From the UHGV virus genome UHGV-0243102: a stretch of DNA of 47,920 nucleotides. The stretch is one strand, 5' to 3'. The stretch's first letter is position 1; every line of letters begins with the position of its first letter. A program made the position numbers and the translations under genes. Origin of the DNA: a virus. Under the pieces are notes generated by a model. That model was not told the origin of the DNA. It ran no database searches and saw only the letters and a program-made list of their open reading frames with translations. Of this stretch, positions 2,333 to 31,926 are shown piece after piece.

Positions 2333-2620
2333 TCACACCACAACTGCGCCGGAAAACTCAGCCAGCCCCATGATTTGCGCTTGCGCCTGGCTGAAAATAT
2401 CTCCATTCAGCCAGGTTATCGGGAATGAGCGCACATCGCCGTTAGATGCACCATTTACCGTGGTTTCCAGGTATGCTGTCCCCGATCCGTCCGGGTAAAC
2501 CGATACACTGGTAACAGTCATGATGAGCTCCGCGCTCTGGGCCTGAGAGCCAATCACAACGCCGTTTGATACCAGGCTCACCTGAACCTCTTTCGTGATT
2601 TTAAATGCCATAGTTTTCAC
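2333..2620 (-). CDS. Small beta-rich protein (95 aa) downstream of tailspike 2. Paralog of 2035..2301.
   Basis: Its start lies 2 nt after the tailspike stop (2622). It shares the MAF N-terminus with the + strand copy. Confidence 0.5.
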   Translation of the reverse strand: MKTMAFKITKEVQVSLVSNGVVIGSQAQSAELIMTVTSVSVYPDGSGTAYLETTVNGASNGDVRSFPITWLNGDIFSQAQAQIMGLAEFSGAVVV

Positions 2621-2621
2621 C

Positions 2622-5069
2622 TTATGAATACGGGACTTGTTTAACCGGGGTAGCTGTACTTACCGTACCACTTATAAAGTTCGTACCAGCTTTCTTTATC
2701 TCTGCGGCACTTCCGGATGCTGGCAGCGGCGCACTTATGGCGGTAGCGCCGATGACATCGCAGCTATCCAGATCAACGGTAGTACCGGCATAGCAGAATA
2801 ATGCCGTACCCGCAGCGCACTGGATAAACGAATCCGCGAACTTGAGGCGAGCGCTGTTATTGGTGTATACGGCCCTCCCGTTTCCGGTGTTATTTGCCGT
2901 AAATCCGGAGAAAATGTTTTTAAGACCGCCATCAACATAAACCAGGTCGTCTGACGTTGCGCCGTTAACGGTAACGTCGCGAAATTTGCCGTAGTTGGCG
3001 TTAATGTAAACTGCCCTGCCTGTGCTTCCCGTATAGCGCACAGTGTCATCTTTAACTGAAAACCAGAAGTTGATGACGTTAGGCGTAACGTGATGGTTGT
3101 CTTTCCAGGTTCTGTCCGTCTGTGTATTGCTCGGGATGGATACCGACTGGGCCTGAGAACTAAATAACTTGTTACTGTGGAATGACATTCGTGAGACAGG
3201 CATAGAGCCGCCTTCCTGGTAGGCAGTCCCTTTGGTAATAATCCGGTTATCGTGGATGTTTACATCCGTTGACACGAAGCCCTGATACATACCGGCAGAC
3301 AACGTTATTCTGTTGATAATGACGTTATCATGTATTTTGCAGTCTGCCGCAAATGTACAATATATTCCTACACCATTATTATCCCGTATCATATTGTCTG
3401 CGCAGACATAATCGGTAACATTACGCAGGGTGACGCCGGAACCATCAGCTGTTGGTTTAGTCGTATCAGAATTAAAAAATCCGTTACGTCGACAAATATT
3501 CCCCTTAATAACCCCCGTAATCGGGACTGGCGAAGACCCTGTGTAGTTAATATCAATACCGTCCGCAGCGTTTTCCCGGCAGGTGTTATCGGAAATGTTC
3601 ACGCCATCATAATCCGGGTGTGGCCCATACTGCATACCGGATGTGCCATTCCTGAGGCACCAGTTAGTCGTGAAGGTTAAATCCCCGACACCGTAACACC
3701 AGAACCCGTTTCCGCCGTTATCAATCAGTGAAAGCCCGCGAACGGTCAGCCCCCGGATACCTCCGCTATCAATACCATTACCGTAGCGCCCGGTAATCCC
3801 CGTGCTAGAGCTATTTACATAAGTCCCTTTGCTGCCGTTATTTGCAATCAGGCAATTCAACACACTGACGTTAGTTACGTTGTAAATAGATAACCCAACC
3901 GATTTCGAACGGTCAGGATTAGAAATCGTTACCCCTTCAAATTTAAAGTTATCGCCACCTGCATCTACAGACACAGCCTCATATTTATTTTCAATTCTCC
4001 CTGAGCCTTTAATGGCTACATCACTTTCTGTAACCAGAAATAATGAGTAATCAGAACGCCGATTACTTTCAGACCACGTGAAATCACCGACAGGATTATG
4101 CTTAATAACGCCATCAATGATGAGCGTTACTCCCTGCGACGGAAGATGGGTATCAAACAGTTCATAATCACCAGGGGCCCACGCCGTTCTCGTTGGGTGC
4201 ACGGCGGCCGCAGCAAGCATCAGCCGAAAAGCTTCATCGTGGGTTATATCACCCCGGCTTGAGCCGAACATCTCAGGAGTAACAAAAGGCAGGCCGCCGA
4301 TGAGATTTGTGCCGTCGCTTGAACCCAGGTTTGAGCGAAGAGTCGCATCGGTGACATCCAGCCACTTTCCTTTACCCCGTCCGCCAGCCGTATCCGGTGT
4401 GCTACCTGGTAAAACGATCTTCGGCATTGCCCCATCCCAGCGCCAGTATTCATCCGTGGATTCCCACAGAAGAACCTCAAAGCGTTGAGTGAGTAGCGAC
4501 CCTTTTTCAAACGAGCCGATTGCCGGAACATACCCCCATAAGCCAGTTCCCGCAGGATCCTGCAGTTTTGGCTGCCCGGCACCATCAAAGCCAAGCCCCT
4601 TCCATGCCCGCTCCCCTGCTGAAGGCAAAACATTTACCGAGGCTTCAGGGACTCGTAACGTACGCTGGAGTATGTCCAGATTTGCTTCAAACGGGTAAGT
4701 TGGCCGGAAGTGAATAGCAGACTTACCGATGACTACGGGATCATCAGCCTCAACCTGCCAGCAGTCACCATTAATCGAAAAAACCAGCGTACCGTTGACC
4801 GCGTCCCGGGGTCCGTTAAAATCAGTCGCCCTGACCCAGAACGAACGGCGCGCTACCCAGATACCGTTTTCGACGGGGTTATCCTGCCCTAAAAGCAGAA
4901 CACGCATCCCTTCCGTGGTAGTGATCGTCCGCTCATCCGTTGGCGTTTTGGACGTAATAGTCTGCTCGCCGAAACGGGTGATTTCATAATCAGCTGAAAT
5001 ATAGACCGGTGGCTTTACAGCAACACTCGTGGTCAGTCCATAAAGGCGGTCTTGAGGAGTCGCGGGCAT
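2622..5069 (-). CDS. Tailspike protein (815 aa), beta-helix / pectin-lyase fold.
   Basis: It is the last large gene of the late operon. Beta-helix rungs include NPDRSKSVGLSIYNVTNVSVLNCLIANNGSKGTYVNSS, GNGIDSGGIRGLTVRGLSLIDNGGNGFWCYG and IHDNVIINRITL. The N-terminal ~120 aa probably form a particle-binding adaptor. Confidence 0.65.
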   Translation of the reverse strand: MPATPQDRLYGLTTSVAVKPPVYISADYEITRFGEQTITSKTPTDERTITTTEGMRVLLLGQDNPVENGIWVARRSFWVRATDFNGPRDAVNGTLVFSINGDCWQVEADDPVVIGKSAIHFRPTYPFEANLDILQRTLRVPEASVNVLPSAGERAWKGLGFDGAGQPKLQDPAGTGLWGYVPAIGSFEKGSLLTQRFEVLLWESTDEYWRWDGAMPKIVLPGSTPDTAGGRGKGKWLDVTDATLRSNLGSSDGTNLIGGLPFVTPEMFGSSRGDITHDEAFRLMLAAAAVHPTRTAWAPGDYELFDTHLPSQGVTLIIDGVIKHNPVGDFTWSESNRRSDYSLFLVTESDVAIKGSGRIENKYEAVSVDAGGDNFKFEGVTISNPDRSKSVGLSIYNVTNVSVLNCLIANNGSKGTYVNSSSTGITGRYGNGIDSGGIRGLTVRGLSLIDNGGNGFWCYGVGDLTFTTNWCLRNGTSGMQYGPHPDYDGVNISDNTCRENAADGIDINYTGSSPVPITGVIKGNICRRNGFFNSDTTKPTADGSGVTLRNVTDYVCADNMIRDNNGVGIYCTFAADCKIHDNVIINRITLSAGMYQGFVSTDVNIHDNRIITKGTAYQEGGSMPVSRMSFHSNKLFSSQAQSVSIPSNTQTDRTWKDNHHVTPNVINFWFSVKDDTVRYTGSTGRAVYINANYGKFRDVTVNGATSDDLVYVDGGLKNIFSGFTANNTGNGRAVYTNNSARLKFADSFIQCAAGTALFCYAGTTVDLDSCDVIGATAISAPLPASGSAAEIKKAGTNFISGTVSTATPVKQVPYS

Positions 5070-21813: not shown

Positions 21814-23406
21814 TTATCGTCTCCTTTTCTGGTTGGAGTGTCCGAGATTAACTTTCGGCGGCGCATTCCGTGCCCGGTAGCCGCCGCGAACATTCGCCTG
21901 CCTTTCACCATCAAACCAACTCATAACCACGGCGTCGCCCCGGTCAGGAGAACGTCCCAGGCGCTTAACGAGATTTTCTTTCGACTCAAGATGAATGACG
22001 CCGCCGCCATTCCCGCCACGCTTAACCTCATAGGTTGGTGCGGTAAGGTCAGAGAGTAATGTTGGATCGTTTGGGAGGCAGATTGTTGAGCCGCCTGGCT
22101 GGTCAGGATTCAATGCCTCACGTAGTTTCCAGTAAGCCTCGGTTCGAATATTTCTGAACTTCAGCAGGCCATCATGTGTACGTCTGACGGAATCCTTGAT
22201 CCCCATGTACGAAACAGCATCAACGCCGTTTTCACGCAAGTGCGCATAGGCGTCACCACCCCAGCCGCCGCCAATATCAACAATGCATTTGGCGCCATCA
22301 CGGCGCTTGGAGATAACCAGACCAGCAACATCAGTTCCTCCGGGAGTCTCTTTCCCCGGAACTGTGAGCAATTCAGCAAACCAGCCGTCATGGCGGGGAG
22401 ATATCACCGTGTTGTCAGAACCACCCTGCGCAACGTCCACGCCAATGGCACACATTGGAACGCCCGCGGGAGGTTGCGCCGTCCAGCGAGACATTGCCGC
22501 CTGCACCCAGGCTGTGGGGATGCATTGGTTGGGTTCATCCTGAAGCGATGCCCGGAACTGCCCATCGCGGTATGCATCCCGTAATTCTTTTGGAAGGTTG
22601 TTAAGGATACGGGCATATTCACCATCAGCAGCCAGATCGGGATTGTCGCTTAACTTTGCCGGGATGAATGTTCTCGACTTAGCCTCAACCATGAAACCAC
22701 CGATCAAGTGCGGCCCCCGGCCTTCAACCTCCATTTCTTCGCCGACTTCATTTCGAAGATACCAGCGAAGTTCGCCGGGTTTCGCGGGGTTAGGATGCGA
22801 TGGATCAAGCCATGCCCCCCACCGCCGAATAACCCATAGCCCTGTAGCGCTGGTCGGTGGGTTACCAGTAGCCACAACCCGGCATTTTTGCCCCGGAGTC
22901 GTGGAACGGTTCCAGATCGTGATGAACTCGTACTGAGTTTCGAGGAAGTCAGTCACCTCATCGAAACAAATTAAATCGTGAGGATCACCTTTATAGCGCT
23001 GCTTGTCCTCTTCCTGCTCACAGCCGCCGTACTGGATTAGCTGTTTGCCATTCCTCCAGACCAGATCCGAACCATTCCACCCATCACGACCGCCGTCGAA
23101 CAACTTACCGATAAGTTCAGACTCGGCCAGTTTCTTGGCATCTTCGCGGATACGTCGCAAGATGAGTGATCGCTCGTGGCTTGTGACAGCCAGGCCGTTT
23201 ATCAGCGCAGATTTACCACCGCCCGCCTGTCCGCCGTAAAACAGTTCATCGGCATCACAGTAATAAGCGTCAGTCTGAGGGCCAGGATTCGGCACCCAGA
23301 GCATATCTTTTGTCGCGGCCATTACATCATGCTCGACAGCCTTCAATTCTTCAGGGGAAAGAGACTTCAGGCGTTCGAGAACTTCATCAAAAGAAATCCC
23401 GCTCAT
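21814..23406 (-). CDS. terL: Terminase large subunit (530 aa).
   Basis: A Walker A-like YGGQAGGGKS. Its position after terS. A C-terminal acidic nuclease-like region. Confidence 0.75.
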   Translation of the reverse strand: MSGISFDEVLERLKSLSPEELKAVEHDVMAATKDMLWVPNPGPQTDAYYCDADELFYGGQAGGGKSALINGLAVTSHERSLILRRIREDAKKLAESELIGKLFDGGRDGWNGSDLVWRNGKQLIQYGGCEQEEDKQRYKGDPHDLICFDEVTDFLETQYEFITIWNRSTTPGQKCRVVATGNPPTSATGLWVIRRWGAWLDPSHPNPAKPGELRWYLRNEVGEEMEVEGRGPHLIGGFMVEAKSRTFIPAKLSDNPDLAADGEYARILNNLPKELRDAYRDGQFRASLQDEPNQCIPTAWVQAAMSRWTAQPPAGVPMCAIGVDVAQGGSDNTVISPRHDGWFAELLTVPGKETPGGTDVAGLVISKRRDGAKCIVDIGGGWGGDAYAHLRENGVDAVSYMGIKDSVRRTHDGLLKFRNIRTEAYWKLREALNPDQPGGSTICLPNDPTLLSDLTAPTYEVKRGGNGGGVIHLESKENLVKRLGRSPDRGDAVVMSWFDGERQANVRGGYRARNAPPKVNLGHSNQKRRR

Positions 23407-23407
23407 A

Positions 23408-24400
23408 TCATTTCATCGCTTTAGTCAGGGCAAACGCCAGGCGACGCGCAAGCACGTTGAGATCGACAACCTCCCCCTCTTTTTTCTCAGGAGGTTCAAG
23501 TTGTTTGCGGATTTTGTCTACTTCCAGTTGGCGGCGCTCAATCTCCACCTGCTGGATGCGCTGCGCATTCTCCGCATCAGCCAGGCCCAGACGCTTAGCG
23601 ACAGCCTCAAACATCCGTTCACGGCTGATTGAGGTTATTTCGATACCGGCCTTGCCGACCTTCACACCGGAATAAGCCAGCGCGGCCGCATCATCCAATT
23701 TTGTCGAGTCTTGCAGCACTACGCGGCTCACTCCTTCGCCATTACAGCGCGGGCAATCTGGATTAGGATCGAGTGTATGGTTATAGCCATAACCGCCAAC
23801 ATCAACAGGCTCGCGACGTTTGCGCTCAAGCGCTTCAAGCCTCTTCTCTTCGTACTCAACGGCATCACGCCATTGGTACTGGTGACCGAAGCCCCAGCAG
23901 TGACGGCAACAACCGCGGCGATGTTGCGATATCTGGTTGGCGTCGAAGGTGGCCAGTCGCCACATCTGCTCAAGCACTTCGTCAGCGCTGCCGAGTGTGC
24001 GCACAATGGATGCTTTCTGCTGCTGCGTAATTGCCTGCGCAATCTCAACTTTCTTCAACAGACGTTGACCAATTGAGTAAGCAGTCTTTTTGCTGTACCC
24101 GGCACGGATGGCGGCCTGTGTGGCGTTGTTATCCTTCAGGTACTCCGCGACAAATAAACGCTGTTGAACAGTAAGGCCGTCATCATCCACCAACTCTTCT
24201 GCGCACTGTTCCTTTTGCGCAGTGCGCAATTTCTTCTGCGCAGTTTTTTGCGCAGTTTGCGCAGTGGGTTTCTTGATATATCGACGGGCGGTTGCGTAAT
24301 TCAGTCCCTGCGCTTCACACCAATCCTTCGGTGATACGCCGGTTGCGGCATGATCGGACAGGAACCGTTGCTGAAGATCGCCCCAGTCCGGTTTTGCCAT
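23408..24400 (-). CDS. terS: Terminase small subunit (330 aa) with an N-terminal HTH and a C-terminal Cys-rich region.
   Basis: The N-terminus MAKPDWGDLQQRFLSDHAATGVSPKDWCEAQGLNYATARRYIKK is typical of HTH TerS proteins. It lies directly upstream of terL. Confidence 0.65.
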   Translation of the reverse strand: MAKPDWGDLQQRFLSDHAATGVSPKDWCEAQGLNYATARRYIKKPTAQTAQKTAQKKLRTAQKEQCAEELVDDDGLTVQQRLFVAEYLKDNNATQAAIRAGYSKKTAYSIGQRLLKKVEIAQAITQQQKASIVRTLGSADEVLEQMWRLATFDANQISQHRRGCCRHCWGFGHQYQWRDAVEYEEKRLEALERKRREPVDVGGYGYNHTLDPNPDCPRCNGEGVSRVVLQDSTKLDDAAALAYSGVKVGKAGIEITSISRERMFEAVAKRLGLADAENAQRIQQVEIERRQLEVDKIRKQLEPPEKKEGEVVDLNVLARRLAFALTKAMK

Positions 24401-24473
24401 GATGTTTTCCCTGAATTCTGAACATTATCGAAGCCACTCATTGTGAATAGCTTCTGTAATGCCTATGTCATGG

Positions 24474-24983
24474 TTAAACGATTTGCCAGTCTTCGGCCAT
24501 CAGGTCGCCCGTAGACGGTACCCAAGCGCACAATTCATTCTGTGAATTTCTCAGCACAAACATGTCATTGAACGTTGGCTCGCCAACATATTCGCCAAAG
24601 TCATAACCCAGTGCCGACGCTAATTTTTCGCCTTTCACGAGATAAACAAATTGTTCTTTCCCGTTCCATCCCGCCCGCAGCAAACTCTTCCCCTGCTTGA
24701 GCGCTTCAATGGCAAGGCCGAAACTCAGCCCTGATACCGGACGGTAAGCCTTTTCGAATACTTCTTTCGGGCTCCAGCTAACGTAGCCATCAAAGCGATC
24801 GGTGTTAGGTTTTCCGCCGTCCAGATATTCAACCAGATAGCCTTCGTCCGCGCCGTTCTCGTCGGCAGGAAGCTGCCAGCCGCGAAAATCGTTATATGCC
24901 TGTCTCGTCATCGGAAAGGCGTTAATCAGTTTCACGCCAATATGTTGGGTCATTGAACCACCTTCAAGATTAATAATCCCCAT
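24474..24983 (-). CDS. DUF2829-family protein (Tad2-like, candidate anti-Thoeris signal sponge) with an extra ~75-aa N-terminal region.
   Basis: The C-terminal half ALKQGKSLLRAGWNGKEQFVYLVKG ... WVPSTGDLMAEDWQIV matches the DUF2829 pattern as I recall it (ALKxGKKVxRxGWNGKG ... DLLAEDWEIV). The likely real start is 24953. Confidence 0.55.
   Translation of the reverse strand: MGIINLEGGSMTQHIGVKLINAFPMTRQAYNDFRGWQLPADENGADEGYLVEYLDGGKPNTDRFDGYVSWSPKEVFEKAYRPVSGLSFGLAIEALKQGKSLLRAGWNGKEQFVYLVKGEKLASALGYDFGEYVGEPTFNDMFVLRNSQNELCAWVPSTGDLMAEDWQIV
24953..24983 (-). other. Possible 5' leader of the DUF2829 gene, if translation starts at M11 (24953) rather than at 24983.
   Basis: The ORF-track ATG at 24983 is buried in the 3' arm of a 12-bp hairpin. 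The ATG at 24953 has an AAGGTGG Shine-Dalgarno 5 nt upstream. Confidence 0.3.
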
Positions 24984-25016
24984 TAAGGGATAGTGAATGA
25001 TGCCCCCTTAATGGGG
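24978..25016 (-). terminator. 12-bp perfect inverted repeat CCCCATTAAGGG-N15-CCCTTAATGGGG, followed on the minus strand by a U-rich tract. A terminator or attenuator between the lysis operon and the DUF2829 gene.
   Basis: A perfect 12-bp stem directly after the stop of the 25017..25331 ORF. ATTATTAATCTT follows on the transcribed strand. Confidence 0.45.
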
Positions 25017-25301
25017 TTAGCAATCAGAGTCAGGACGGGCTACAGCACGGCACGCCCACATACAGGCCTCTTGCATTTTGGTGCGGGCGATTGCCAGACA
25101 GCGCAAAGCCTCTGCTCTCTCGGTTTCGGCCTGACTACCACGCTCGACAACTTCAGCCGTTGCAACCTCTCGCTCAGTATCGAGCAGACTGCAAAAATGC
25201 CGGCTTACACCTTTGAGGCGGTTCATGCGCTCAATCTCGCCCGCGGTTAATGTGCGGTAGCCCTTTACTGTGGTGCCGTCCTGCGGTTTTGCTTCACTCA
25301 T
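25017..25301 (-). CDS. Hypothetical protein (~94 aa) at the end of the lysis operon.
   Basis: An ORF whose start MSEAKPQ overlaps the Rz1 stop by ATGA. No function recognised. Confidence 0.35.
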   Translation of the reverse strand: MSEAKPQDGTTVKGYRTLTAGEIERMNRLKGVSRHFCSLLDTEREVATAEVVERGSQAETERAEALRCLAIARTKMQEACMWACRAVARPDSDC

Positions 25302-25528
25302 TTCGTAGCCTTTTCGGTTGATTGCGGGCAATTGGCCTGCACTGCTTTGTTGTGCGCCAGAATGTCGCGTTTGGTCTGCTTGTCCAGCGCGTCGATATCA
25401 TGATCTGTCAGGTAGATGATCCGCACCCAGCTGCAGGCGGTATCAACCACCACCGGGGCGGGTAAACTTTTCGCGCAGCTCGCGATCAACATCGTCATCA
25501 CGCATATGGCTAACAGTCTGCTGTGCAT
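25298..25528 (-). CDS. o-spanin (Rz1-like outer-membrane lipoprotein).
   Basis: The internal start MHSRLLAICVMTMLIASCAK carries a lipobox LIAS-C. It overlaps the 3' part of the i-spanin gene in another frame. Confidence 0.55.
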   Translation of the reverse strand: MHSRLLAICVMTMLIASCAKSLPAPVVVDTACSWVRIIYLTDHDIDALDKQTKRDILAHNKAVQANCPQSTEKATK

Positions 25529-25718
25529 TGCTGGCCTCTTGAATAACATCTGCTTTACGTTCTGCCGCGGCGATGCTGGCGGCCGCGTTCTCTTCGGTGC
25601 GCTGCTGTTCGGCTTTGGCTTCCGCCTTGCTGGTCCCGCGCGCATGGCCTAACCCAAACGCGCCTACGATTAAGCCAAGCAGAACGACTACCAACCCGCT
25701 TATAAATTCAAGGCTCAT
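25443..25718 (-). CDS. i-spanin (Rz-like).
   Basis: An N-terminal TM segment followed by a charged coiled coil. It overlaps Rz1. Confidence 0.55.
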   Translation of the reverse strand: MSLEFISGLVVVLLGLIVGAFGLGHARGTSKAEAKAEQQRTEENAAASIAAAERKADVIQEASNAQQTVSHMRDDDVDRELREKFTRPGGG

Positions 25719-26059
25719 TGCACCTCCTGCTGCTCATCGGCTTTTTCTTTCAGCTTTGGCTGTCTGACGTATTGAGAGAGGATGGCGAGCACCACCAGAG
25801 CCGGGCTAATCATCGCCACAACGTTGGGCGGCAAAATACCCTTGATATCCGGCGGCAACATCGCCCAGGCATGAAGAGCTGCGTCAGGAAATGATTGGGC
25901 CCATACACCGACCAACGCGCCGGCAGCGCCTAAGCGGACAGACCATGTTTTAAGCAGTAACCGGGCATGACCAACAAACTCCAGCCGGGAATATTTGCGC
26001 AATAGCAACAGAACGAGCACGGCCACCAGCGCCAGCAGAGCGAAAATAATCATCTTCAT
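25715..26059 (-). CDS. LysA-like membrane protein (putative antiholin / lysis regulator).
   Basis: A 114-aa protein with 2-3 TM segments between the endolysin and the spanins. Its order matches the P2 Y-K-lysA-lysB-lysC cassette. Confidence 0.45.
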   Translation of the reverse strand: MKMIIFALLALVAVLVLLLLRKYSRLEFVGHARLLLKTWSVRLGAAGALVGVWAQSFPDAALHAWAMLPPDIKGILPPNVVAMISPALVVLAILSQYVRQPKLKEKADEQQEVQ

Positions 26060-26598
26060 AGGCTCACCCGCTCTTTAACCCAGCCGTATAGAAACGCTTC
26101 GTTCGCCGGCCTCGCTTCGGCCAACTCAAGATAGCGAGCCCCCTGGCTGCAATTCAGCGCCTTTAGCAGCGTGGCTTCGCCGTCTTTACCACGAACGGCG
26201 AGATAACTTTTCAGGGCGGCGATGGTGAGATTGCCGATTGCACCGTCCGGCTTCAGGTCCGGATAGAGCTTGCCCTGCATATTCAGCGCTGATAACCAGC
26301 GCTGCAGGAATGTACTTGCGACACGCGGCCCCATGTTCACGCCGGTATCACATAACTCCTGCGCAATGGATGGCGACAACTCGGCGATGCGGTCAAACTT
26401 CGGTTCTGTCCAGTATTGCGACAGGTAAATGGCTTTGGCGGTTTCCCGTGGTAACGCCTTCATATCACCTGCGTAACCATATGCGCGGGCGGTAGTCTGC
26501 GTGATACCCCAGCGAGTTGGGCCGCCTTTATCATTCGGGTTATTTACGTAACCCCCTTCTTTGCCGAGAATCCCCTCGATAATCTGATCTGCTGTCAT
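26056..26598 (-). CDS. Endolysin: glycoside hydrolase family 108 N-acetylmuramidase with a C-terminal peptidoglycan-binding domain.
   Basis: MTADQIIEGILGKEGGYVNNPNDKGGPTRWGIT is the hallmark GH108 N-terminus. Confidence 0.8.
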   Translation of the reverse strand: MTADQIIEGILGKEGGYVNNPNDKGGPTRWGITQTTARAYGYAGDMKALPRETAKAIYLSQYWTEPKFDRIAELSPSIAQELCDTGVNMGPRVASTFLQRWLSALNMQGKLYPDLKPDGAIGNLTIAALKSYLAVRGKDGEATLLKALNCSQGARYLELAEARPANEAFLYGWVKERVSL

Positions 26599-26906
26599 GG
26601 CGCCTTAACTCCGGTAATGCGCTCCCAGAAATAGGTCAAAGCAACAGACCCCATTGCCCCGCTAATTCCGGAAGTGGCCAGTATCATGTAAATGCTCAGT
26701 CCGCTTTCAATGCTCACCAGGCCAGCAATAACGCCGGTAAACCCTGAAACCACCATTTGGGCAAGAGCATTGATCAAGCTCCATGTTGCCTTGCTCTGCT
26801 TCACATCTATCAGGTAGCGGACAAGTCCACCCCAGCAAGCAATGATCAGCAGAACCAGCCAGGACATCCCGGCAATGCTCTCTTTGTCTTGCATACGTTT
26901 AGCCAT
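26595..26906 (-). CDS. Holin (~103 aa, 3 TM).
   Basis: The start MAKRMQDKESIAGMSWLVLLIIACWGG sits inside a longer ORF-track ORF. Hydrophobic helices with a charged C-terminus. Its 4-nt overlap with the endolysin start. Confidence 0.55.
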   Translation of the reverse strand: MAKRMQDKESIAGMSWLVLLIIACWGGLVRYLIDVKQSKATWSLINALAQMVVSGFTGVIAGLVSIESGLSIYMILATSGISGAMGSVALTYFWERITGVKAP

Positions 26907-27202
26907 AGTTACCGCCTCCGATGAAAGATCGGGAAGCTGTGTGAATAAATCGGCGGGCTCTGCGCAAGCGCCCTGCGATTGGGTTATGAACCGTCGCAGG
27001 TGAGCCCTGTATGGGGAATGGCCGCCAGTTGGAACAAGGTGAATAACGTTTTGGCGACCAAAAGAGAAAAGGCCCGCGAATGCGAGCCCTAAATGCAGAA
27101 AGCCCCGACGTTTGTCGAGGCTCTTAAATTTTTTCTTCAACGGTGAACATACAATGCCCATCGTTAGAACAAATTAACACGAATTCGGGAAAAGTAAATA
27201 TC

Positions 27203-28024
27203 TCAGCGCGTTATTTGTTTGAGTTGTGCCTCTGCCCATGCCTCCTCTATATCGAATTTAGTGATCAGCACGTCGAAGAACGGCTTAACCGACTTCTTCC
27301 AGGTATCCAGGGTGATGGCGTCAGTTATCTGGCAAATGGCACTGTGCACAGCAGTTGAGAGGATCCGCTCATAACCGCGCCCACCACAGCGTTTACAGTT
27401 ACCCATGACAGGCGCGCCCTGTTTCTCCGTCTCATCCTGATTCACTACCTTTCCCCTTCCGTGGCAGTCGTTACAGGAAGCACTGACGGTCCCTTTTCCC
27501 TGGCACTTTTGGCAGAGCACCCGAACCTGCTCCCTGACAGACTTTGCCTCCTCCCAGTATGATGGATAGATCCCCTTTGTAACTTTGACCCACTTTGGAG
27601 GTTTGCCATCTGGATAAGTTACTTTGTTAGTGAACACCTCTGCATCGATGAATCCAGACCCATGGCAGCAGTCACATGTTTTTTTACTGGAAGCGCTGCG
27701 GGAGTAATCTTCAAAGGCGAACTCTGCGAGTATCCGGATAACCCGGGGTTTTACGTTTGGTGTGAGTTTGCGCAGCGCAGCTACTTTATCGCACCGGGTT
27801 AATGCGTATTCGGCCAGCAACGCGATCGCCCTTTCCCTATCATTGTTGCTGATACCCATCTTTCCGAGGAAGGCGCTATACCCCATTGCAGCGCGCTCCT
27901 GCGTCATACCCATTGCCGCCATAATATCGGTACCGGTCAGTGAATCAGAGGCGGTAGCACGCGGAGAATCGCTAATCAGCGTGGATTTTGCGAAGTGGTA
28001 TTTCACTGTGTTTTCAAGGTTCAT
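27203..28024 (-). CDS. Putative late-gene regulator (Q-type antiterminator-like) with four DnaJ-type CxxCxGxG zinc-finger repeats.
   Basis: It lies between the nin-like genes and the lysis cassette. The repeats are CDCCHGSG, CQKCQGKG, CNDCHGRG and CKRCGGRG. Confidence 0.45.
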   Translation of the reverse strand: MNLENTVKYHFAKSTLISDSPRATASDSLTGTDIMAAMGMTQERAAMGYSAFLGKMGISNNDRERAIALLAEYALTRCDKVAALRKLTPNVKPRVIRILAEFAFEDYSRSASSKKTCDCCHGSGFIDAEVFTNKVTYPDGKPPKWVKVTKGIYPSYWEEAKSVREQVRVLCQKCQGKGTVSASCNDCHGRGKVVNQDETEKQGAPVMGNCKRCGGRGYERILSTAVHSAICQITDAITLDTWKKSVKPFFDVLITKFDIEEAWAEAQLKQITR

Positions 28025-28157
28025 GCTCTCTCTCCCCGGATCTGACAGGTGCGAATAAAGTTTTTAAGGATGCGATATGCCACCGGGAACGACCCGCGAT
28101 AGCGGACAATGTTCAACTGTAGCCAGCGCTGGCGAATACATTCAGTTGTGTTCATGT

Positions 28158-28451
28158 TCATGCTTTTACCAGCCCTTCTTTTTTCCATATGGCCAGCGTT
28201 CTGAGCACACCTTCCGCATGCATCAGCCGCAGTTCATCATGGGTGTAATCGGTGGTTTTCTTCCGTCCGTCGATCAAGTCGTGGCAACAGCTGCAGGCGA
28301 TAGCCGCCTGAGTATCGTCAGGCTTGCATCCTGTGCCGCACGTACCCGCCAGCCGATAATGCGCCAGCACGCTGGTTTCCGGGTTGCCGTTGCAGTAACC
28401 CGGGATCCTGACTGTACATTCGCGGCCGCGCGCCTCTTTGCGTAGGTTCGC
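28158..28451 (-). CDS. YbcO-like protein (DUF1364; putative nuclease of lambdoid nin regions).
   Basis: MANLRKEARGRECTVRIPGYCNGNPETSVLAHYRL... closely resembles E. coli DLP12 YbcO as remembered. Confidence 0.6.
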   Translation of the reverse strand, partial: ANLRKEARGRECTVRIPGYCNGNPETSVLAHYRLAGTCGTGCKPDDTQAAIACSCCHDLIDGRKKTTDYTHDELRLMHAEGVLRTLAIWKKEGLVKA

Positions 28452-29997: not shown

Positions 29998-31926
29998 TTA
30001 AGCGGCCATTTCTTTTTGCTGACATAACTCAGGCAAATTAGCCCTCACCAGCGCTTCCGCGAACGGTGGTGGGACGGCATTACCACAGCGCGCGACCTGT
30101 TTATCCTTCGCATACTTCACGCCGCGGTAGTCCCGGTCAATGATGTACCACTCCGGAAAGCCCTGCGCCCGGTAAAGTTCATGCGGCTGCAGCATTCGCA
30201 TTCCGATGTCAACAATCCGGTAAACAATGCCCTTAATCGTCACCAGTTCGCTGACGCCAAACGTATTTAGGAACTCTTTGACTTGATCCGCACGGCGCTC
30301 ATCGTAATCATTAGCCGCCAGCAGCGCGCTAACCTCTCCCACATGCTGACCTCCTGCGGTGATTGTCGGCATCGGTTCATCGGTGCGCTGACCATCACGG
30401 CAGGTACCGCGCAGTTTTACCAGGTGCGATGTCACAAGAGCGTGATGATCGACTGTAGTCACTGAGTGAGCTGGCTCATCAAGCCCAACGCCCGGACCGG
30501 TGTAGTTCCCGCCATAGTGTTTTGCCAGGAATGCAGTTGTTACGGCAAACTTATTGCCCCCAGCTGTAACAGTACCCAACGGTTTACCAAGATTTAGAAC
30601 CCGCGGCGATTGCCCCACCCGTTCGCCATACCCCATCTGAATAAGCGTGGCCGTGACTAACTGAGACTTTCCCCCACCCCCAGCGGTAATCGTGGCGCTA
30701 GGCTCATCCGCCCGATGGCCAATGCTGGCACCGAACTGGCGGGCGATAACCGGGGCAACCACGCATGCTCGGGATTGCTTTAGGATGGTATGAACTGGTT
30801 TGTTGAGTGGGCGCGGTTTAGCTTGGTACTGGCTACCACCATTTCCAGCCATAAACGGTGCCAGAGTAGGTACCGCCAACGCGTAACCATGAGTTTTGGT
30901 GATTGTCTGTATTGGCGAATACAACTCCTGTCCACGGAAACAATCATATTTACCGCGTGTCGTGGTATGGTTGCATTTCACGATGAATGGGTTATCGCTA
31001 TCGACCACAAATCTCTGGATACCCCGAGCTATACGCTTCAACGTGTTAACTGCAAGCGGCTTTTTGCGGTCAAATATCGATGGTGCAGGAATGGACCAGT
31101 CGATGCATTCAGCAGCTGTCCGCCATGGCGCCAGTTTACCTGTCAGCACCGACGGTGATTTCGGATCTCCATGAGTGGCTTCCGGCCATACAATCGGCTT
31201 CCCATCGCAGCGCATCACCATGAAGAACCGCTTACGGATGGTCGGCGCGCCATAATCGCATGCGCGCAGCTCTCGATACTCAACGGTGTAACCCAAACCG
31301 TTTACCAGCCGTGCTGCATCCTCGCTATCAAGCGAAATATTCAGAAATTCGCAGCATTCGGCCAGCGCCGGATGATCCGCTGAGATGCCAGTGGTCAGCA
31401 TGCCAATGAATGCCTCAAAAGTTTCGCCAGCGCGGGCAGGATCTGGACGCATTTCACCAGCAAGCAGCGGCCCCCATGTTTTAAACTCTTCAACGTTCTC
31501 CAGCATCAGAACCCGCGGTTCAACATCCAGCCCCCAGCGCAGAACAATCCAAGCCAGCCCGCGAATCGCCTTTTCTACCGGCTTGGCCCCTTTCGCCTTT
31601 GAGAAGTGGCGGCAATCTGGACTAAACCATGCCAGCCCGACCCGGCGGCCAGCGGTCGCAACTTTCGGACGAACCGAATAAACCGACTCGCAGTAATGCA
31701 ACGTGTCGGGGTGATTAGTGGTGTGCATCGCGACAGCATTGGGATCGTGGTTTATAGCAATATCCACGCTGCGCCCCATCGCCAACTCAATGCCCGTTGA
31801 AGCGCCGCCGCCACCAGCGAAGTTATCAACGATGATTTCGCTATCTCTCACGCGTATTTCTCCATGGCGCAGGCCAGCGAACGAGCCGCGGCGATAATTG
31901 ACGGTACCGGCATTTTTTCCAGCCAC
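29998..31926 (-). CDS. DNA (cytosine-5)-methyltransferase, 642 aa, orphan (no cognate restriction enzyme seen).
   Basis: Motif I DNFAGGGGAS, the motif IV PC box (FSPDCRHFS) and motif VI ENVEE. Confidence 0.8.
   Translation of the reverse strand: MAGKNAGTVNYRRGSFAGLRHGEIRVRDSEIIVDNFAGGGGASTGIELAMGRSVDIAINHDPNAVAMHTTNHPDTLHYCESVYSVRPKVATAGRRVGLAWFSPDCRHFSKAKGAKPVEKAIRGLAWIVLRWGLDVEPRVLMLENVEEFKTWGPLLAGEMRPDPARAGETFEAFIGMLTTGISADHPALAECCEFLNISLDSEDAARLVNGLGYTVEYRELRACDYGAPTIRKRFFMVMRCDGKPIVWPEATHGDPKSPSVLTGKLAPWRTAAECIDWSIPAPSIFDRKKPLAVNTLKRIARGIQRFVVDSDNPFIVKCNHTTTRGKYDCFRGQELYSPIQTITKTHGYALAVPTLAPFMAGNGGSQYQAKPRPLNKPVHTILKQSRACVVAPVIARQFGASIGHRADEPSATITAGGGGKSQLVTATLIQMGYGERVGQSPRVLNLGKPLGTVTAGGNKFAVTTAFLAKHYGGNYTGPGVGLDEPAHSVTTVDHHALVTSHLVKLRGTCRDGQRTDEPMPTITAGGQHVGEVSALLAANDYDERRADQVKEFLNTFGVSELVTIKGIVYRIVDIGMRMLQPHELYRAQGFPEWYIIDRDYRGVKYAKDKQVARCGNAVPPPFAEALVRANLPELCQQKEMAA

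Follow-up and report, generated by a model that had tools for sequence, protein, structure and literature searches.

Genomic context and organisation of the gene

The stretch of DNA analysed here is the viral genome UHGV-0243102 (47,920 nucleotides (nt); hereafter, the window), which carries on its minus strand a gene composed of two modules: a C-terminal domain of the Tad2 family of sponges, proteins that sequester immune signals, and an N-terminal domain (NTD) of 75 amino acids (aa) that no curated family covers. The host element is a lambdoid prophage, and the locus is that of an enterobacterial temperate phage. From Q through terL every gene shares one strand, in the order Q, holin, GH108 endolysin, DUF7940, inner-membrane spanin (i-spanin), outer-membrane spanin (o-spanin), Acb2, hairpin, NTD-Tad2, terS and terL (Table 1). 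A previous description of the region, made from the letters alone (the sequence-only reading), had placed the gene between the lysis cassette and terS; this placement is true, although the reading had overlooked the Acb2 gene that lies between the spanins and NTD-Tad2.

The open reading frame (ORF) of the gene spans positions 24474..24983 and encodes 169 aa, with the C-terminal part ...ALKQGKSLLRAGWNGKEQFVYLVKG...WVPSTGDLMAEDWQIV. Its first ATG (24983-24981) lies within the 3' arm of the hairpin and lacks a Shine-Dalgarno sequence, whereas GAAGGTGG precedes the ATG at 24953. Furthermore, homologues of 154-162 aa from more than 100 clusters have their first residue at the equivalent of 24953, and the DNA homology with the same gene of phages Kapi1 and Louie sets in just past the hairpin and is unbroken from this ATG onwards. 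On these sequence grounds, the real start is the ATG at 24953 and the product has 159 aa, in agreement with the downstream start that the sequence-only reading had favoured. Residues of the 159-aa protein are numbered from this codon. The proposal of a protein built of two modules also holds, since a C-terminal half covered by PF11195 is joined to a separate NTD; the complete two-domain protein matches phrog_872, a full-length two-domain family, with E=7e-69.

Table 1. Features of the NTD-Tad2 locus (positions in the window)
Feature	Position	Strand	Description
Two-module gene, NTD + Tad2-like sponge domain	24474..24953	-	159 aa plus stop; ATG 24953
NTD	24729..24953	-	Residues 1-75; beta-alpha-beta-beta-alpha; no curated family
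Tad2-like (PF11195/DUF2829) domain	24474..24728	-	Residues 76-159 plus stop codon
Shine-Dalgarno-like GAAGGTGG	24958..24965	-	Spacer of 4 nt to ATG 24953
Intercistronic stem-loop	24978..25016	-	12-bp perfect inverted repeat; 13-bp RNA stem; contains non-functional ATG 24983
Acb2-family sponge gene	25017..25301	-	94 aa; ATG overlaps the o-spanin stop (ATGA)
tR'-like intrinsic terminator	27069..27090	-	Just 3' of Q; 9-bp stem with 6 GC pairs, then TTCTCTTTTG
Q antiterminator	27203..28024	-	PF03589 Antiterm, E=5.5e-43; heads late operon with lysis genes, Acb2, NTD-Tad2 and terminase genes
terS	23408-24400	-	PF03592

The C-terminal Tad2 domain

The assignment of the C-terminal half to the Tad2 family is solid, because profile search, match to solved structures, predicted fold and ligand-contact residues all agree. 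The hidden Markov model (HMM) of PF11195 ('Tad2-like') scores 77.6 bits, where the gathering cut-off is 25 (E=1e-21), and covers residues 87-169 of the 169-aa ORF over profile positions 2-73 of 73. At the level of solved structures, the sequence of SPO1 Tad2 (8SME, 8WJE) aligns without gaps to residues 75-159 with ~55% identity (E=2e-25), and those of ModTad2, SptTad2 and HgmTad2/AcrIIA7 give weaker matches. An AlphaFold2 model of the full-length protein, calculated as a monomer from an input of 34 homologues, has a predicted local distance difference test (pLDDT) score of 85.5, and the best 24 matches of a Foldseek comparison against the PDB are all Tad2 proteins (SPO1, ModTad2, HgmTad2 and SptTad2), with probability 1.0 and target-normalised template modelling (TM) scores of 0.61-0.90 (0.78-0.90 for SPO1 Tad2). 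Finally, W96, N97, W144 and D150 align to W25, N26, W73 and D79 of SPO1 Tad2, by which that protein holds 1''-3' gcADPR (Yirmiya et al., 10.1101/2023.05.01.538930), and are invariant in 34 full-length homologues. The DUF2829/Tad2 fold that had been recognised by eye in the C-terminal ~85 aa, in which an N-terminal helix precedes an antiparallel sheet that carries helical inserts, is thereby confirmed.

From the perspective of function, this domain probably forms a tetramer that sequesters a signal of the ADP-ribose (ADPR) type derived from Toll/interleukin-1 receptor (TIR) proteins. Judging from the ~55% identity to SPO1 Tad2 and the identical contact residues, its most likely ligand would be 1''-3' gcADPR (3'cADPR). 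The Tad2 half is in this respect ordinary, a further member of a well-known family whose orthologues are already annotated as DUF2829 in RefSeq.

The gene is a mosaic within its own coding sequence. In Kapi1, IME10 and Louie, 93-97% identity extends over the NTD and the first Tad2 helix (24686-24953, compared with positions 2747-3268 of the Kapi1 locus), and the protein of Kapi1 is ~97% identical to the one described here through residue 89, after which the two diverge sharply. The central insert of the Tad2 domain differs beyond this joint, while the frame formed by GWNG and W..S..D.LAEDW is retained. A conserved NTD has therefore been recombined onto variable Tad2 bodies, and the joint suggests that modules were swapped, or that the sponge body diversified, while the NTD stayed constant.

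The N-terminal domain

When modelled alone as a monomer, the NTD reaches a pLDDT of 94.5 and adopts a beta-alpha-beta-beta-alpha topology. It has no match in Pfam even at E<=10 (39 sequences), none in NCBIfam and none in a profile search of the PDB sequences, and it resembles neither in sequence nor in structure any of the sponges Tad1, Tad2, Acb2, Acb4, Sequestin and Lockin. The sequence-only reading was thus right to call this region of ~75 aa unrecognised, but not in taking it for a peculiarity of this copy, as it is shared by phrog_872, by gp49 of phage N4 and by a very large set of other proteins. An exhaustive profile search retrieves 2,619 representative clusters (defined at 50% identity) at E<=1e-3, of which 1,294 at E<=1e-10. 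Proteins of 73-354 aa carry the domain at either terminus or in the middle, and 132 sequenced phages contain it, among them N4-like, P22-like, Vibrio, Pseudomonas, Clostridium and crAss-like phages.

Within the same proteins the NTD is more conserved than the Tad2 half, with a mean pairwise identity of 71% versus 52% and 23 versus 11 invariant columns. Its invariant or conserved residues include K8, R17, R24, W26, Y43, Y57 and W60, together with the acidic E32, D36, E42 and D45, and the most conserved loops of the subfamily contain R24-G25-W26, P29, E32, D45-G46-G47 and N50. Proteins of 73-80 aa that consist of the NTD alone also exist. One such lineage is encoded among genes for ribonucleotide reductase, glutaredoxin and PhoH, with no recognisable sponge in the neighbourhood, which argues against stand-alone NTD genes being parts of split sponge genes. 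In the N4-like Erwinia phage phiEaP8, a stand-alone NTD gene (2468-2704 of its locus) occupies the slot beside the gene for the virion RNA polymerase (vRNAP).

[quoted passage not shown] According to that study, the fold of this N-domain has an unknown function and is frequently encoded as a separate ORF, its crystal structure shows a dimer with swapped beta1 strands, and gp68_N (residues 1-86) displays no apparent activity in a type I Thoeris assay. Comparison of the NTD profile with the gp68 N-domain by hhalign gives a probability of 97.4% (E=1.4e-11) over 72 aligned columns, the motifs K-x-V-x-A-x-P-M-T, EGYLV-Y and SWSP-x-x-VF are common to both, and a Foldseek search of the NTD against viral models (BFVD) returns a RyR-domain protein of Yersinia phage TG1. 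The hhalign and Foldseek results together indicate that the NTD and the gp68 N-domain are the same module, distantly related.

Fusion partners of the N-terminal domain

The proteins that contain the NTD were inspected by a Pfam scan and by an iterative HMM census, to which probes for Lockin and RyR were added; both cover the 143 best-scoring NTD representatives of the 2,619, a sample biased to the proteobacterial subfamily. In the Pfam scan, the partner is Tad2-like in 45 of the 143 proteins, PF21825 in 40 and PF13876 in 15, while Acb2_Tad1_hairpin, WDGH, AP2 and HNH_3 occur in one protein each. In the literature, PF21825 corresponds to Sequestin, a sponge for 3'cADPR (Tal et al.), and PF13876 to Acb4, a sponge for 3'3'-cGAMP (Chang et al.). 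According to the HMM census, at least one known sponge domain accompanies the NTD in 94/143 proteins, in either order relative to it. The domain orders comprise NTD-Tad2, Tad2-NTD, NTD-Sequestin, Sequestin-NTD, Acb4-NTD-Sequestin, NTD-Tad2-Sequestin, NTD-Lockin and NTD-RyR, and triple fusions are represented by NTD-Acb4-Sequestin and NTD-Tad2-Sequestin. Altogether, the partners belong to at least six families (Tad2, Sequestin, Acb4, Acb2/Tad1, Lockin and RyR Tad).

In another 42/143 proteins of the census, at least 40 aa match no known sponge or Pfam family, and in 7/143 the NTD stands alone. Clustering of the unmatched partners yields mostly singletons, with some frameshifted fragments of Tad2 and, in one protein, a MazG-like N-terminal part. 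On the published reasoning from fusions, such tails may be new anti-defence domains, though some of them are frameshift debris.

Fusions of the same kind can be found in the tables of Tal et al. (S1, S4), where the list of Sequestin homologues contains at least 85 NTD-Sequestin fusions and that of Lockin two fusions of an NTD-like domain to Lockin. Tal et al. discovered Sequestin through Pfam, by searching for unknown families fused to Tad2 or Acb4; the NTD could not surface in such a search because it has no Pfam entry, and no NTD member is among the 124 candidates that were screened. A literature search found no description of the NTD as an uncurated domain tied to many sponge families, and the only mention found for an N-terminal domain of Tad2 or for N4 gp49 concerns the N-domain of RyR Tad. 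The association of the NTD with many sponge families thus appears to be undescribed, while the two-domain NTD-Tad2 architecture itself is common.

Three known families were considered as possible identities of the NTD. Lockin was rejected; it is described as a curved, mostly beta-sheet family of hexamers, absent from the INPHARED complete phage genomes, and in fusions it stands beside the NTD and not instead of it. By their published descriptions, TadIV-1 is confined to the Straboviridae, and Acb5 is an enzyme that cleaves 3'3'-cGAMP and not a sequestering protein.

The intercistronic hairpin

The hairpin between the Acb2 gene and NTD-Tad2 begins at the base next after the Acb2 stop codon. The two arms of its inverted repeat match perfectly: CCCCATTAAGGG occupies 24978-24989 and CCCTTAATGGGG 25005-25016, and the gap between them is 15 nt. 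No other spaced perfect inverted repeat of at least 12 bp occurs in the window. The predicted RNA has a stem of 13 bp, of which 8 are GC pairs, a loop of 13 nt and a free energy of -21.7 kcal/mol, with a pairing probability of ~1.0 in all the contexts folded, and its tail AUUAUUAAUCUU lacks a U run. A consensus terminator scan reports at this place only a 6-bp sub-hairpin (24991-24976). At the equivalent position, Kapi1 and Louie carry what by eye are canonical terminators, in which a loop of 3-4 nt closes a GC stem of 6-7 bp and a T run follows. No Rfam family is found at E<=1 in the region 23300-28200. As a side observation, E. coli SCU-308 (at ~4000 of its locus) is homologous to the Acb2-proximal arm (25005-25016) and not to the other arm; therefore, the perfect stem of this lineage spans a recombination joint.

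In mechanistic terms, the hairpin is a stable intercistronic structure at the junction of the Acb2 module with NTD-Tad2, which would be terminator-like or RNA-stabilising and act as the functional analogue of the canonical terminators found at the same place in P22-like phages. Only ~24 nt separate it from the ATG at 24953, and since this leaves no room for a promoter, polymerase modified by Q would have to transcribe through it; both termination and read-through at this site are presumptive.

The sequence-only reading had described the inverted repeat correctly, as perfect and covering the first ATG, and had seen in it a sign of regulated or attenuated read-through from the lysis operon, considered here as a dedicated translational or attenuation switch of the downstream gene. 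The stem-loop is indeed very stable and located 12 nt upstream of the Shine-Dalgarno sequence, whose predicted partner in a 111-nt context is the 3' end of the Acb2 ORF (probability 0.85-1.0), an arrangement that could lead to translational coupling. However, the ATG that it hides is not a start codon, its form is not that of a consensus terminator, and the pairing of the Shine-Dalgarno sequence depends on context: the partner of AGGUGG, at 25032-25038 in the minimum free energy fold of 111 nt, shifts to 24917-24921 in windows of 181 and 281 nt, and the probability falls to ~0.6 in 281 nt. Sequestration of the Shine-Dalgarno sequence or coupling with acb2 was consequently rejected as not robust to window size. 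The z-score of the fold is merely -2.3, and the other settings of the gene (Kapi1 and Louie, or SCU-308) do not retain the hairpin. A role as regulator, or attenuated read-through from the lysis operon, is not established, and a dedicated switch is unlikely.

Acb2 and the late operon

The gene upstream of the hairpin belongs to the Acb2 family, with a match to PF24729 (Acb2_Tad1_hairpin) of E=6e-18 (65.2 bits against a cut-off of 27) and matches over ~82 aa to the solved Acb2 proteins T4 Vs.4 (7uq2; E=4.9e-8) and PaMx33 p26 (8h2j; E=1.2e-7). Some Acb2 homologues bind 3'cADPR and not the signals of CBASS, so specificity varies in this family. The Acb2 gene and NTD-Tad2 are two sponge genes side by side in a late operon, and they likely constitute a late-expressed anti-signalling pair. 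Expression at this stage would be sensible because several signalling immune systems are reported to be triggered by late structural proteins.

Comparable pairs recur at other loci. In N4, gp48 (Acb4, PF13876) precedes gp49 (NTD-Tad2); P22-like prophages of E. coli have NTD-Tad2 and, after it, Acb4 in the interval from the spanins to terS; and in Klebsiella prophages an NTD-Tad2 and Acb4 pair is located within the head module. More than 10 prophages of E. coli also have this block of lysis genes plus Acb2, followed by differing cargo downstream, before terS. In lambdoid and P22-like prophages, the slot that separates the lysis genes from the terminase genes would in this sense be a late-expressed anti-signalling islet with Acb2, Tad2 and Acb4 as cargo.

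Several further features of the late region were recorded. By its position, the terminator that follows Q appears to be the counterpart of the lambdoid tR'. The 188-aa 'holin' ORF (26595-27202, minus strand) overlaps with its 5' part this strong terminator-like hairpin (27090-27069), an arrangement that resembles the lambdoid pR'-tR' leader; since its LydA holin domain spans residues 103-179, the start of the holin is probably an internal Met near 26906. A gene for a DUF7940 membrane protein (25715-26059, minus strand) is located between the endolysin and i-spanin genes. The 5' end of terS contains the heptamer TGCGCAG six times, in both orientations, over 66 bp (24199-24264), and in the window as a whole it is found 34 times against 11 expected (0/100 shuffles); the cluster could be a pac-type recognition cluster or merely a repeated stretch of TerS that encodes TAQK. 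Upstream of the late region, the product of a gene at 29998-31926 (minus strand) has 642 aa and contains a C-5 cytosine DNA methylase domain; it may have an anti-restriction function.

Proposed function and alternative explanations

The reading that is favoured here, to which we assign a probability of about 0.6, is that the gene encodes a bipartite anti-signalling protein in which a Tad2 sponge is combined with an accessory dimerising NTD, expressed after Acb2 from a late operon under antitermination by Q. The Tad2 half would form a homotetramer, as SPO1 Tad2 does, and the pockets between its protomers would sequester the ADP-ribose-derived signals made by TIR proteins, so that the effectors of Thoeris would never be activated. 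The NTD would act as an accessory module that dimerises by strand swap and pairs the protomers of even-numbered sponge oligomers, and its conserved loop surface may add a further binding function. The role of dimeriser is attributed to the NTD because its sole characterised relative, the N-domain of RyR Tad, swaps strands and is without activity against type I Thoeris. A dimeric add-on also fits the known partner families, which have been reported as even-numbered oligomers (dimer, tetramer or hexamer). Tetramer formation, the ligand and the dimerisation of the NTD are in this protein deduced from relatives.

A number of observations weigh against this reading. The specificities of the Tad2 family are varied and include His-ADPR, N7-cADPR, cUMP and cGG, so the ligand proposed above is only a best guess. 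The N-domain of gp68 is a distant relative (29% identity) and lacks the loops with R24-G25-W26, P29, E32, D45-G46-G47 and N50; hence its behaviour may not transfer to this NTD, and the loops that are invariant in the subfamily may carry a function that the experiment with gp68 could not reveal. The frequency of stand-alone NTD genes and the very strong conservation of the loops exceed what a passive dimerisation tag needs. As for the hairpin, its 13-nt loop and the absence of a U run depart from the pattern of a Rho-independent terminator (GC stem, loop of 3-8 nt and U run), and it is not kept at the Acb2 locus of E. coli SCU-308, where just the 5' arm is homologous.

As the main alternative, the chain would contain two sponges, the NTD being a new family that sequesters or manipulates a signal other than gcADPR, so that the gene neutralises two signals at once. 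Acb4-Tad2 and Acb4-Sequestin fusions set a precedent for such proteins, which the triple fusions of the NTD (NTD-Acb4-Sequestin, NTD-Tad2-Sequestin) extend, and the NTD bears the signature that led to Sequestin: it is fused to sponges (with six partner families), often alone, short and phage-restricted. It is found alone at the hotspot beside vRNAP in phiEaP8, it is conserved beyond the attached Tad2 domain, and the invariant K8, R17 and R24, together with W26, Y43, Y57 and W60, might form the walls of a nucleotide pocket. Stand-alone genes, loop conservation and the fusion signature thus favour an autonomous function of the NTD. Nevertheless, gp68_N of RyR Tad was inactive in the type I Thoeris assay, and the conserved acidic residues E32, D36, E42 and D45 would be unusual for the known sponge pockets, which are positively charged; the screen of Tal et al., with no NTD member among its 124 candidates, is no direct test either way. 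The second counter-defence activity that the sequence-only reading had suggested for the N-terminal region is accordingly not established, its distant homologue gp68_N being inactive on type I Thoeris and acting in dimerisation, and two sponges in one chain are a possible but rather improbable arrangement.

The NTD might instead protect the sponge, either by countering host systems that detect sponges, such as the decoy-signal guards of the Panoptes type, or by stabilising or localising its partner. Its indiscriminate attachment to sponges that are mechanistically similar and structurally unrelated would agree with this, as would the lack of anti-Thoeris activity of the RyR Tad N-domain alone, and Acb2, Tad1/2 and Acb4 sponges are known to trigger Panoptes. 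However, the proposal is purely inferential, the sequence indicates no target, and stand-alone NTD genes occur with no recognisable sponge adjacent to them, which makes protection a very unlikely role. Far less credible still is an anti-CRISPR function of the AcrIIA7 type, as annotated in phages Louie, Huey and Mimir124. Homologues do carry the label 'anti-CRISPR protein', and there are weak matches to AcrIIA7 that involve only the N-terminal helix (8kbi, E=6e-6; 9kzr, E=3e-5). AcrIIA7 is nevertheless the same protein as HgmTad2, for which Li et al. could not reproduce Cas9 inhibition and showed a sponge for gcADPR and cyclic dinucleotides, and the protein described here is far closer to SPO1 Tad2 (E=2e-25). 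The anti-CRISPR reading has thereby been largely refuted by the literature.

A bipartite protein with an accessory dimerising NTD is therefore retained as the preferred explanation. In a broader and more tentative view, held at clearly less than even odds, the NTD would be a very widespread, unrecognised anti-defence module, namely a seventh family that binds immune signals or else an accessory of universal use, for any sponge fold. If so, the gene would encode a dual-function counter-defence protein, and the ~40 fusions of the NTD to unmatched segments would point to further sponge families. Sponges are the main known route by which phages get past signalling immunity (Thoeris, CBASS and Pycsar), and fusion to known sponges has recently brought new families to light. 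A function for the NTD would explain a recurrent design in counter-defence, whether by a new ligand specificity, by bracing of the oligomer or by evasion of systems that sense sponges, and both N4 (gp49), a model phage, and the P22-like coliphages give access to the domain.

Comparison with known systems

The family's founding protein, SPO1 Tad2 (Gp34.65; 8SME/8SMF/8WJE), corresponds to the C-terminal 85 aa from end to end, with identical GWNG and W...D contacts, the same predicted fold and a beta2-beta3 insert of the same type. It is a single-domain protein of 89 aa from a virulent Bacillus phage, whereas the protein described here has an extra N-terminal domain of 75 aa and is encoded in the late operon of a temperate enterobacterial element. 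A full-length NTD-Tad2 orthologue is N4 gp49 (YP_950527; 160 aa; 'DUF2829 domain-containing protein'), with 45% identity over 159 aa (E=4e-45); no report of gp49 or its NTD having been tested was found in the literature search. Both genes adjoin a sponge gene, which in N4 is gp48 (gp48 and gp49 at 2609-3462 of the N4 locus), within a documented anti-signalling hotspot directly beside vRNAP. The two differ in that N4-like phages are virulent, the genomic slot is another one and the neighbour is Acb4 rather than Acb2.

RyR Tad is likewise a two-module sponge with an N-terminal domain homologous to the NTD, but its C-terminal sponge is an all-helical domain similar to RyR Repeat12 and not Tad2, and its N-domain is without two loops, RGW...P-DE-G and DGGKPN, in which the NTD subfamily described here does not vary. 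With respect to the neighbouring gene, the hairpin domain PF24729 spans nearly the whole protein, as in T4 Vs.4 and PaMx33 p26, while here the Acb2 gene is attached to the end of the lysis cassette through the ATGA overlap with o-spanin. Finally, the published fusions between sponges (Acb4-Tad2 of Pasteurella phage Pm86, Tad2-Sequestin, and Acb4-Sequestin of Ab09/YH6) are also short phage proteins that join oligomeric modules. In these, the fusion partner served to predict function and both halves are demonstrated sponges; the NTD, present in the same chains, would be at most a candidate sponge.

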